A DNA stretch of 64,000 bases. Origin: Bacilli bacterium (GTDB lineage: Bacteria; Bacillota_I; Bacilli_A; RF39; UBA660). Numbering within the stretch: position 1 is the first letter of the stretch; every line of letters starts with the position of its first letter. The stretch is from assembly GCA_017525035.1 (NCBI GenBank), contig JAFXTH010000014.1:7650-71649 (forward strand), written 5' to 3'. The position numbers and the translations under genes were made by a program. Below the pieces are notes generated by a model. It did not search any database, was not told where the DNA came from, and saw nothing but the letters and a program-made list of their open reading frames with translations. Below, in pieces: positions 55,792-57,365 of the stretch.

Positions 55792-55820
55792 TTGACCTTA
55801 TGTTTTTTAAGTCCTATAAT
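55792..55820 (+). promoter_or_regulatory. near-consensus sigma-A promoter
   Basis: TTGACC-17 nt-TATAAT. Confidence 0.6.
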
Positions 55821-55856
55821 GAAATTACAATATTAATAATTGAGAGAGGTTTGTAT

Positions 55857-57365
55857 ATGTGTAAAATTATTAAAAAATCAGAAAAAGGTTTTACCTTAAT
55901 TGAGTTGCTAGCGGTAATTATTATTCTTGGGATTTTAATGATTATAGCTATTCCAAGCGTAACAAGTTATATTAACAGCTCAAGAAAAAGTGGTTATGTT
56001 TCCACTATAAAAGAACTTGTGGGGGGTGCAAGAAACATAGTTAATGACGGAAAAATTAAACCATATGATACAAGCGTAACATATTATATGCCTGGAAAAT
56101 GTATTCCAACAGAAAATGCTAATAAATCGCCATATGGTGAGTTTGAAGCGTCATATATTATATTCAACTACACAGGTAGTGGATACGTTTATTATTGGAA
56201 AGGTGTAGACTCAAATGGTATGGGAATACGTGAAGCTAAATTGGTAGATCAAATTGATACTGAAGATATTGCTTCAGATTTACCATTATCAGATGTTGAC
56301 TACTTTGTTCCTATTGATGGAAGAACAAAAGTAGGTGTAATGAACGATAGTTGTAGTGAATTTACACCAGAAGATTATACTTATAGATTCACACCACAAT
56401 ATACATATGCTGCTACTTGTACAACAGGTGAAGCATTTACTTGTGATCCATCGACATATGGACAATCATATGTTTCTAATTGTGAAGCTAATACATATCA
56501 TTTTTCAATGACATCATCATCAAGAACACAAATGGGAAGCGGTGGTACTTGTTCTGGAAGCGGAACATCATTTACATGTAATTCTAGTACATTAGGTCAA
56601 TCTTATACAACAGCGAGTGTTCAACCACAAACTAGTATAAGTTATGATACAGTACCATCTTGTTCAAACTCTGGTAGCACAGCTTGTAATCAATCAACAG
56701 GATCACACACAGCATATGTATGTCAAACGCCAGTGTATACTTACTATTGGGGTAATTCAACAACATCTTCAGCATCATCATGCACGCCACATACATCATC
56801 ATGTAATGAGTCACTTTATAATTCATCAAATCCATACTATATAACATGTACACCAAATTATACTTACTCATTTGGAGCATCATCTAACTCAACAGTAAGC
56901 TCATGTACGCCAAATTCAGTATCATCATGTAATGAAAGTGTCTATAATTCAGGAAATATAACTAATGTAACATGTGTTACACAGTATAGTTATCATTTAA
57001 GTAATACACCAACAACAACAAATGTAACATCATGCTCTGATACATATACTTCTGGAGTGTCAGAATGTAATAATACTAATGGACCTGCGAACTTGGGTAA
57101 ATCATACGTAAGATGTTCTTATAATTCAAGTACAGGAACTTATACCAAAAGGGTATATAAATGTGAAAGAACACTAACAGGATATAAAAGAACAACTAAG
57201 ACATGTCTTAGAAATCAATCAGGATATCAAAAAACTCAAAGACAATGTATTAGACAGATAAATGGATATAAACGAATGGTTTATCGATGTGACGTTTATT
57301 GTGCAAAAAATACTCAAACTTGTAAGAAAGAATATAGGATAACGAAACAATATTGTACTAAATAA
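55857..57365 (+). CDS. prepilin-type N-terminal cleavage/methylation domain protein with a large Cys/Ser/Thr-rich C-terminal region
   Basis: MCKIIKKSEKG|FTLIELLAVIIILGILMIIAIPS is a class III signal peptide (G-FTLIE). About two dozen Cys residues in repeated modules. Confidence 0.7.
   Translation: MCKIIKKSEKGFTLIELLAVIIILGILMIIAIPSVTSYINSSRKSGYVSTIKELVGGARNIVNDGKIKPYDTSVTYYMPGKCIPTENANKSPYGEFEASYIIFNYTGSGYVYYWKGVDSNGMGIREAKLVDQIDTEDIASDLPLSDVDYFVPIDGRTKVGVMNDSCSEFTPEDYTYRFTPQYTYAATCTTGEAFTCDPSTYGQSYVSNCEANTYHFSMTSSSRTQMGSGGTCSGSGTSFTCNSSTLGQSYTTASVQPQTSISYDTVPSCSNSGSTACNQSTGSHTAYVCQTPVYTYYWGNSTTSSASSCTPHTSSCNESLYNSSNPYYITCTPNYTYSFGASSNSTVSSCTPNSVSSCNESVYNSGNITNVTCVTQYSYHLSNTPTTTNVTSCSDTYTSGVSECNNTNGPANLGKSYVRCSYNSSTGTYTKRVYKCERTLTGYKRTTKTCLRNQSGYQKTQRQCIRQINGYKRMVYRCDVYCAKNTQTCKKEYRITKQYCTK
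56736..57110 (+). repeat. three ~41-42-codon coding repeats within the pilin-like gene
   Basis: Units start at 56736, 56859 and 56985: Y(T/S)Y....S....SSC(T/S).....(S/E)CN(E/N)..YNS.N....(T/R)C. Confidence 0.7.

Follow-up and report, generated by a model that had tools for sequence, protein, structure and literature searches.

Among described proteins, the closest to the one considered here are PilB and PilC of Streptococcus sanguinis, in which a pilin module is joined to a vWA and to a lectin module, respectively, an architecture that has also been surveyed across InterPro (PMC8179133). The protein under discussion, a prepilin-like product of 502 amino acids (aa) with a Cys-rich C-terminal part, is encoded next to the type VII secretion system (T7SS) gene essC in a 64,000-nucleotide stretch of DNA from a Bacilli bacterium of the RF39 lineage (contig JAFXTH010000014.1; the whole stretch is called the window hereafter). 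Like PilB and PilC, it begins with a class III leader, after which come a small pilin module and a bulky C-terminal module of an unrelated kind; the monoderm Bacillota background is also common to them, and among PDB sequences that of S. sanguinis PilE1 matches the alpha-1N segment of the window protein best. However, its C-terminal module is an undescribed Cys-rich array instead of a vWA or lectin domain, its gene lies outside a pil operon, its family is greatly expanded and scattered, and its role in a filament is predicted from sequence.

Three other systems invite comparison. The Com pilus pilins (ComGC, ComGD, ComGE, ComGF and ComGG) have the same prepilin motif, the models of ComGC, ComGD and ComGE give weak N-terminal matches, and the basic surface of the window protein could in principle bind DNA; but the match to the ComGC model (NF040999) reaches 31.7 bits against an equivalog cut-off of 75 and covers the N-terminal 42 residues only, and the protein is five times longer than ComGC (approx. 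100 aa) and has no comG operon context. In archaea, class III signal-peptide proteins are also found outside pili, as with the sugar-binding proteins of the Sulfolobus bindosome, and are diverse and encoded away from assembly genes. The family of the window protein resembles them in that a single pilin-type N-terminus is common to extracellular proteins of diverse function, whose genes lie far from those for assembly, but it belongs to another domain of life and conserves a whole pilin module of approximately 165 residues, not the signal peptide alone. Finally, like EsaA and EssB of the T7SSb, the protein would have an N-terminal transmembrane segment followed by a large extracellular part, and its gene adjoins essC; unlike EsaA, EssA, EssB and EsaB/YukD, to which it has no sequence similarity, it is dispensable in five of nine loci and belongs to a separate transcription unit.

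In the following, it is argued, with a probability of roughly 0.68, that the protein would be a minor modular type IV pilin. It would be cleaved by an A24 prepilin peptidase, brought to the surface by a T2SSE/T2SSF machine encoded at dispersed loci, and carry a Cys-rich stalk and a tail that would bind an anionic ligand.

The gene, its leader peptide and the pilin module

The gene and the parts of its product are as follows:

55857–57365, + strand: coding sequence of the modular prepilin-like protein (502 aa plus stop; ribosome-binding site GAGAGAGG at 55842–55849)
55857–55889, + strand: class III leader MCKIIKKSEKG, residues 1–11 (predicted cleavage after G11; alignments to PDB pilins start at F12)
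55890–56381, + strand: pilin module, residues 12–175 (confidently modelled; invariant columns; Cys pair C82/C166)
56382–57116, + strand: Ser/Thr-rich region with six three-Cys repeats of approximately 40 aa, residues 176–420 (motif SSC-x5-8-(F/S)xC-N-x-S-xxG-xxY-xxxC-xPNY)
57117–57362, + strand: basic tail, residues 421–502 (four to five units of approximately 14 aa, Y-x6-C)

The reading frame can be extended upstream to a TTG at 55779, but the ATG at 55857, with the ribosome-binding site 5' of it, is the best and a credible start. The start at 55792 given in a first-pass annotation of the window lies in another frame, at a promoter-like sequence (55792–55820), and the processed product would count 491 residues instead of the approximately 470 given there. 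The same 502-aa product is present in public gene calls on seven metagenome contigs from several samples; the stretch, with a G+C content of 27.5%, belongs to an uncultured gut organism and has been recovered from gut metagenomes, bovine ones among them.

The N-terminus, MCKIIKKSEKG followed by FTLIELLAVIIILGILMIIAIPSV, has the expected cleavage motif between G11 and F12 and a glutamate at position 16. It matches the Pfam family N_methyl (PF07963) with an E-value of 1.1e-7 and 31.5 bits (cut-off 21.2) and TIGR02532 with 27 bits (cut-off 16.3), and in a PDB sequence search the mature forms of solved pilins (S. sanguinis PilE1, geopilin, MshA and PilA) align with their residue 1 on F12. The class III signal peptide of the first-pass annotation is, thus, borne out, exceeding the curated cut-offs of both models. 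Among 120 aligned relatives, F12, E16 and P33 do not vary, and G25 is nearly invariant (at least 90%); counted from the start of the mature protein, they are F1, E5, P22 and G14, positions classically related to assembly.

Structure prediction, suggested earlier as a check, was informative for the N-terminal part of the protein. With the 120-member alignment, AlphaFold2 models residues 1–180 at a predicted local distance difference test (pLDDT) score of 90, as a 50-residue alpha-1 helix (residues 14–63) followed by a sheet of four to five strands (74–79, 95–105, 110–118, 123–129 and 158–173), while the Cys-rich part is modelled at approximately 30. The Cys pair C82/C166 of the N-terminal module co-occurs in 101 of the 120 family members. 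On the basis of the model, membership of this module in the pilin fold is plausible.

The modular-pilin family

When 5.8 billion clusters were searched, more than 1,369 proteins proved to have only the first ~165 residues in common, at 49–61% identity (49–57% where residues ~1–170 were compared), and a scan of JGI metagenomes returned more than 299 loci encoding the module. Beyond these ~165 residues, the C-terminal modules are unrelated and include DUF6273, DUF285, Flg_new repeats and others without a name, some of which are Cys-rich. The combination of an N-terminal pilin module with a separate domain that is not specific to type IV filaments, by which modular pilins are recognized, is found in the window protein, and the architecture of its family is that of the modular-pilin concept (PMC8179133), to judge from the sequences expanded here on a large scale. 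The genes are either solitary among housekeeping genes or arranged in tandem, with three in 21 kb at one locus (L007) and five consecutive ones at another (L033). As an example of a different Cys-rich region, a 736-aa member (L096, 6101–8311) contains 22 Cys; its C-terminus appears Hint/intein-like by eye (CLSGDT...), and N_methyl is its only Pfam match.

The Cys-rich C-terminal part

The window protein contains 27 Cys, 24 of which lie in residues 181–502, in keeping with the two dozen counted in the first-pass annotation. Cys makes up 7.45% of these 322 residues as compared with a mean of 1.16% in 44 other open reading frames (ORFs) of the window, and Ser and Thr together account for 110 residues and Tyr for 31. 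The three-Cys unit has the consensus Y-x-[YF]..SSC-x5-8-(F/S)-x-C-N-x-S-x-x-G-x-x-Y-x-x-x-C, and the shorter pattern C-x6-10-C-[ND]-x-[ST] is found six times, a count reached in none of 5000 shuffled sequences. The repeats reported earlier are, therefore, real and beyond chance, but the two kinds that had been distinguished ('FTC..GQSY' and 'SSC..SCNES') belong to one repeat family. The basic tail, in which four to five units of ~14 aa are counted in place of the three first noted, carries 20 Lys and Arg against 3 Asp and Glu (net +17) and one Cys per 14 residues; its units are modelled as beta-hairpins with pLDDT of approximately 65.

The distribution of this part is narrow. No Pfam match at E ≤ 10 and no PDB sequence match were found for it, and a HMMER search gave only seven matches in 1.84 billion representative proteins; the Cys-dense domain singled out in the first-pass annotation is indeed unusual. 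Three of the seven carry both repeat types, the three-Cys unit and the tail unit: P0143, another prepilin (GFTLVE) with Cys repeats; P0141, a secreted or anchored Cys-repeat protein with a glycine-rich domain (ALK_LTK_GRD); and P0144, a secreted Cys-repeat protein with a glycine-rich region and without a Pfam match. The module is, therefore, found also on carriers that are not pilins (P0141 and P0144). A profile hidden Markov model (HMM) of the repeat built from these three proteins alone finds four to five units in the window protein (independent E-values of 1e-11 to 6e-5) and also recovers units in its orthologues. Owing to the seven matches only, to the recovery by the repeat HMM and to the lack of Pfam and PDB matches, the array is, as far as sequence comparison goes, a genuine, narrowly distributed and undescribed extracellular module.

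The filament machinery

Genes for T2SSE, T2SSF and A24 proteins were searched for in the window by reading of its ORFs, by tblastn with the T2SSF and A24 proteins of the lineage and by six-frame motif scans, and none was found, which agrees with the earlier statement that PilB, PilC, PilD and ComG genes are missing from it. They were found in relatives at these loci:

L093, 702–3073: filament core locus
L099, 10001–12420: filament core locus
L016, 4436–7854: filament core locus
L092, 4023–7350: filament core locus

A T2SSF-A24 pair adjoins a family pilin in L093, and A24 genes (PF06750 and PF01478) adjoin T2SSF in the family-bearing relatives L093, L099 and L100. The gene series AddB-AddA-T2SSF-A24 peptidase lies approximately 12 kb upstream of the family pilin P0066, a linkage derived from contigs that share the gene order of L006, the 213,304-bp contig of P0066 being the longest in the T2SSF cluster. 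T2SSF is strongly conserved, with 7,730 matches at E ≤ 1e-20 and 63–100% identity among the 120 listed. In L092 and in L016, the gene of the T2SSE ATPase (PF00437, 2.5e-124) has two pilin-like genes as divergent neighbours; L016 is a metagenome-assembled genome (MAG) of the clade defined by p306, the gene upstream of the pilin gene in the window, and its T2SSE gene lies 4 kb from p306 and LXG/WXG genes. Two candidates were discarded: a partial ORF at the left edge of L006, taken for an A24 gene, encodes a different, acidic protein, the T2SSF-A24 pair lying just beyond it, and the supposed ATPase upstream of T2SSF in L093 is the C-terminus of AddA.

The core filament genes of the lineage are not gathered in one pil or comG operon but occupy two or more unlinked loci, of which one is AddAB-T2SSF-A24 and another combines Tmk-T2SSE with two pilin-like genes. 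With members of the family scattered and the machinery at other loci, a solitary gene is the rule in this large family, and the 'orphan' character noted for the window protein is nothing special.

Just beyond the end of the window, approximately 6.8 kb downstream of the pilin gene, a second prepilin of 180 aa (MNKKG followed by FSLMELL...) is encoded at ~64131–64673 (18275–18817 of L001), preceded by an MscS gene (~63317–64129). It corresponds to the pilin module of the family alone, shares 31–40% identity with that module in many members, shows 70% conservation in L011, and is a candidate filament subunit.

A proposed role as a minor modular pilin

From the features of the sequence we infer processing, assembly and ligand as follows. 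The hydrophobic alpha-1N segment inserts pilins in the membrane with the C-terminus outside, and it would anchor the window protein likewise, with its C-terminal part facing outward. An A24 prepilin peptidase, as found in the relatives, would then cut after G11, as suggested by the motif. The T2SSE ATPase and the T2SSF platform encoded elsewhere would add the protein to a filament of short pilins such as the 180-aa one beyond the window, in which it would be a tip subunit or one of low abundance. Finally, and speculatively, the Cys-rich stalk, in which disulfides or metal probably form cross-links, may present the basic tail to an anionic ligand, for which cell-wall polymers, glycans or DNA are conceivable candidates.

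The sequences define a new extracellular Cys-rich module of two repeat types, which is mounted on pilin modules as well as on Gly-rich secreted proteins, at least two kinds of carrier. They also point to an expansion of modular pilins, very large and apparently unstudied so far, in uncultured low-GC Bacilli of the gut and rumen, with the genes and assembly machinery dispersed around small genomes. This expansion would bear on how uncultured commensals decorate their surface and also on annotation, since 'orphan' prepilin genes need not be artefacts.

Several observations weigh against a minor modular pilin. The full model and the N-terminal module gave no Foldseek matches in the PDB at E < 0.001, the profile matches to solved PDB pilins cover alpha-1N only, and residues 180–410 of the C-terminal module are those modelled at a pLDDT of approximately 30. 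The ATPase, platform and peptidase are seen in relatives only, the coverage of the protein's own genome being 64 kb plus approximately 3 kb. The sole evidence of expression, a weak sign that the gene is transcribed, comes from one gut metatranscriptome, in which two 151-nt contigs across 56246–56561 match it at 98% identity or more. Furthermore, every Cys-rich orthologue found adjoins essC, and in three lineages it would form an operon with the T7SS-associated p306, which leaves some room for a functional tie to the T7SS.

Of the alternatives, the one that survives best, unlikely as it is, holds that the pilin module is a membrane anchor only, the protein being displayed on the surface unpolymerized, whether cleaved or not. 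The large family would then be a general surface-display system comparable to the archaeal class III signal-peptide proteins, for which the very many paralogues with bulky unrelated C-terminal modules, such as those clustered in L007 and L033, and the distance of the family genes from the machinery genes would speak; but the invariant F1, E5 and P22 and the nearly invariant G14 are tied to filament assembly and not to mere anchoring, and the lineage possesses conserved T2SSE, T2SSF and A24 genes as well as short pilins consisting of the module alone.

The essC neighbourhood

The genes and signals around the pilin gene are:

54805–55725, + strand: p306, a 306-aa protein without a predicted transmembrane segment (upstream of essC or LXG/WXG genes in nine of nine related loci)
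55728–55753, + strand: terminator-like hairpin and T-run 3' of p306 (read from the sequence)
55792–55820, + strand: sigma-70-like promoter of the pilin gene, TTGACC-17-TATAAT (11 of 12 consensus matches)
57390–57423, + strand: terminator-like hairpin (AGATTAAT..ATTAATCT) and T-run, end of the pilin transcription unit (from the sequence)
57427–57455, + strand: essC promoter-like site TTGCCT-17-TATGAT with TG and a conserved leader (nearly invariant in all related loci, whether they have the pilin gene or not)
57494–62116, + strand: essC (FHA and FtsK/SpoIIIE ATPase), a neighbour and not a member of the pilin unit

The hairpin at 55728–55753 was missed by a simple scanner because its stem is AT-rich. 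Homologues of p306 are present at nine related loci (L004, L008 and L011–L017); with p306 as a probe, seven MAG loci were obtained, labelled 'uncultured Clostridium sp.', 'Bacilli bacterium' and 'Erysipelotrichaceae bacterium'. The p306 gene lies directly 5' of essC in eight of the nine and 5' of LXG/WXG-like genes in the ninth. Its family counts 20 clusters only and has no Pfam or NCBIfam match and no match in a PDB profile search; the idea of an EssB-like pseudokinase found no support in these searches. The protein may be a lineage-specific factor associated with the T7SS or a substrate of it. Its divergence is far above that of its neighbours (47–73% identity versus 81–93% for EssC).

The Cys-rich pilin gene is found between p306 and essC in four lineages, namely in the window, L004, L008 and L015, the three orthologues being 372–378 aa long and 43–50% identical, with four repeats and the same tail. 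Thus, the position stressed in the first-pass annotation, immediately upstream of essC, is confirmed and is kept by the orthologues. The pilin gene does not co-occur consistently with essC, five of nine related essC loci (L011, L012, L013, L014 and L017) lacking it while keeping p306-essC-yukD-WXG100, among them the closest relative of the window (L011; IleRS 95% and EssC 93% identical).

The signals around the genes indicate how they would be transcribed. In the window, essC starts 128 bp downstream of the pilin gene, and a hairpin and T-run separate the pilin gene from the essC promoter here as in L004, L008 and L015, where equivalent hairpins stand 3' of the orthologues; in loci without the pilin gene, the terminator of p306 (an equivalent hairpin is present in L011–L017) abuts the essC promoter and leader. 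In L004, L008 and L015 the pilin gene starts within approximately 10 nt of the p306 stop codon, so that the two would form an operon, and in the window a terminator and a new promoter have come to lie between them. Judged by these signals, the pilin gene is outside the essC transcription unit. The essC promoter and 5' leader themselves (57418–57493 in the window, TTGCCTTGA...TATGATATT...AAAATAGTGTGATAATAGTGGAAGCTG) are nearly invariant in L004, L008, L011–L015 and L017, loci whose coding genes have diverged by 7–19%, which suggests a conserved regulatory element.

Whether the neighbourhood reflects function has been considered in two forms. In the first, the protein would be a T7SS accessory, either an adhesin for cell–cell contact in toxin delivery or the extracellular part of a reduced T7SSb, that is an apparatus without recognizable EsaA, EssA or EssB at this locus. 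The slot between p306 and essC is kept in four of four orthologue lineages although the genes farther upstream vary (IleRS, or TelA and AAA), the operon partner p306 is itself always adjacent to T7SS genes, and divergence is fast, as is usual in surface proteins related to antagonism. Against these stand the otherwise intact essC loci without the gene, the closest relative included, the terminator and essC promoter in between, and the Cys-repeat module of P0143, P0141 and P0144, which have no T7SS genes nearby. Furthermore, the window protein matches no T7SS family (EsaA, EssA, EssB, EsaB, WXG100 or LXG), N_methyl and the pilin models being its only matches, and an accessory role is improbable. 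The second form is a long shot: uncultured small-genome Bacilli of the gut and rumen would use the pilin module as a general carrier of dozens of exchangeable surface modules, and the Cys-rich variant would be a contact device co-evolving with the T7SS, docking cells or an anionic envelope polymer for antagonism. It would, if true, be the first functional link of a type IV filament subunit with type VII secretion; a new mechanism of this kind is not currently supported, and literature searches on prepilins with EssC and on RF39/RFN20 with pilins returned nothing relevant.

Since the gene is dispensable, forms a unit separate from essC and carries a module that is not tied to the T7SS, the order p306-pilin-essC is best read, from the loci compared, as an ancestral gene order that was repeatedly lost, and not as part of the T7SS. 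Insertion of the 1.66-kb unit by a mobile element, as the comparison with L011 could have implied, was rejected, the same slot being occupied in three more distant lineages, in an operon with p306; loss of the gene in some lineages would be the simpler account. The link to essC is, therefore, positional only. Among the findings that would tell against its view of the gene, the first-pass annotation had named a complete filament system elsewhere that accounts for the protein, together with homologues never linked to T7SS genes: machinery does exist elsewhere in relatives, in dispersed form, and the orthologues stay linked to essC.

Variation between strains

In a comparison with strain L003, the pilin gene is 97.1% identical at the nucleotide level, five neighbouring genes being 98.6–100% identical, and 20 codon changes are synonymous and 14 non-synonymous. 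The 14 amino-acid changes are all confined to residues 295–494, the pilin module being unchanged and every Cys retained, which is compatible with a scaffold under constraint that bears an exposed and variable module. That the reading frame is decaying or without function, as the low-complexity remnant of a duplicated pilin, is barely credible: the Ser/Thr-rich composition, the low AlphaFold2 confidence and the patchy presence among relatives could be taken for it, but the 502-codon frame is intact and equipped with a ribosome-binding site, promoter and terminator, the identical protein recurs on the seven contigs, orthologues at 43–50% identity retain the repeat motifs and tail, and synonymous changes outnumber the non-synonymous ones with all Cys retained.

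Other gene clusters of the window

A second T7SS-like cluster occupies 41661–45666 (+ strand) and 45697–49562 (− strand). It contains a 300-aa protein resembling the LXG-like gene beside p306 in L016, two helical WXG-like proteins of approximately 105 aa and a protein of 826 aa that has five long repeats in its interior. Beside it, on the opposite strand, lie the genes of an MMPL transporter and of a 598-aa YhgE/Pip-like protein that shows xxxLxxG heptad repeats. The region 17951–24115, situated between polysaccharide-synthesis clusters, looks like a defence island; it encodes a large protein of 861 aa whose N-terminus is HNH-like, one of 227 aa and an AAA/ABC-like ATPase of 719 aa.

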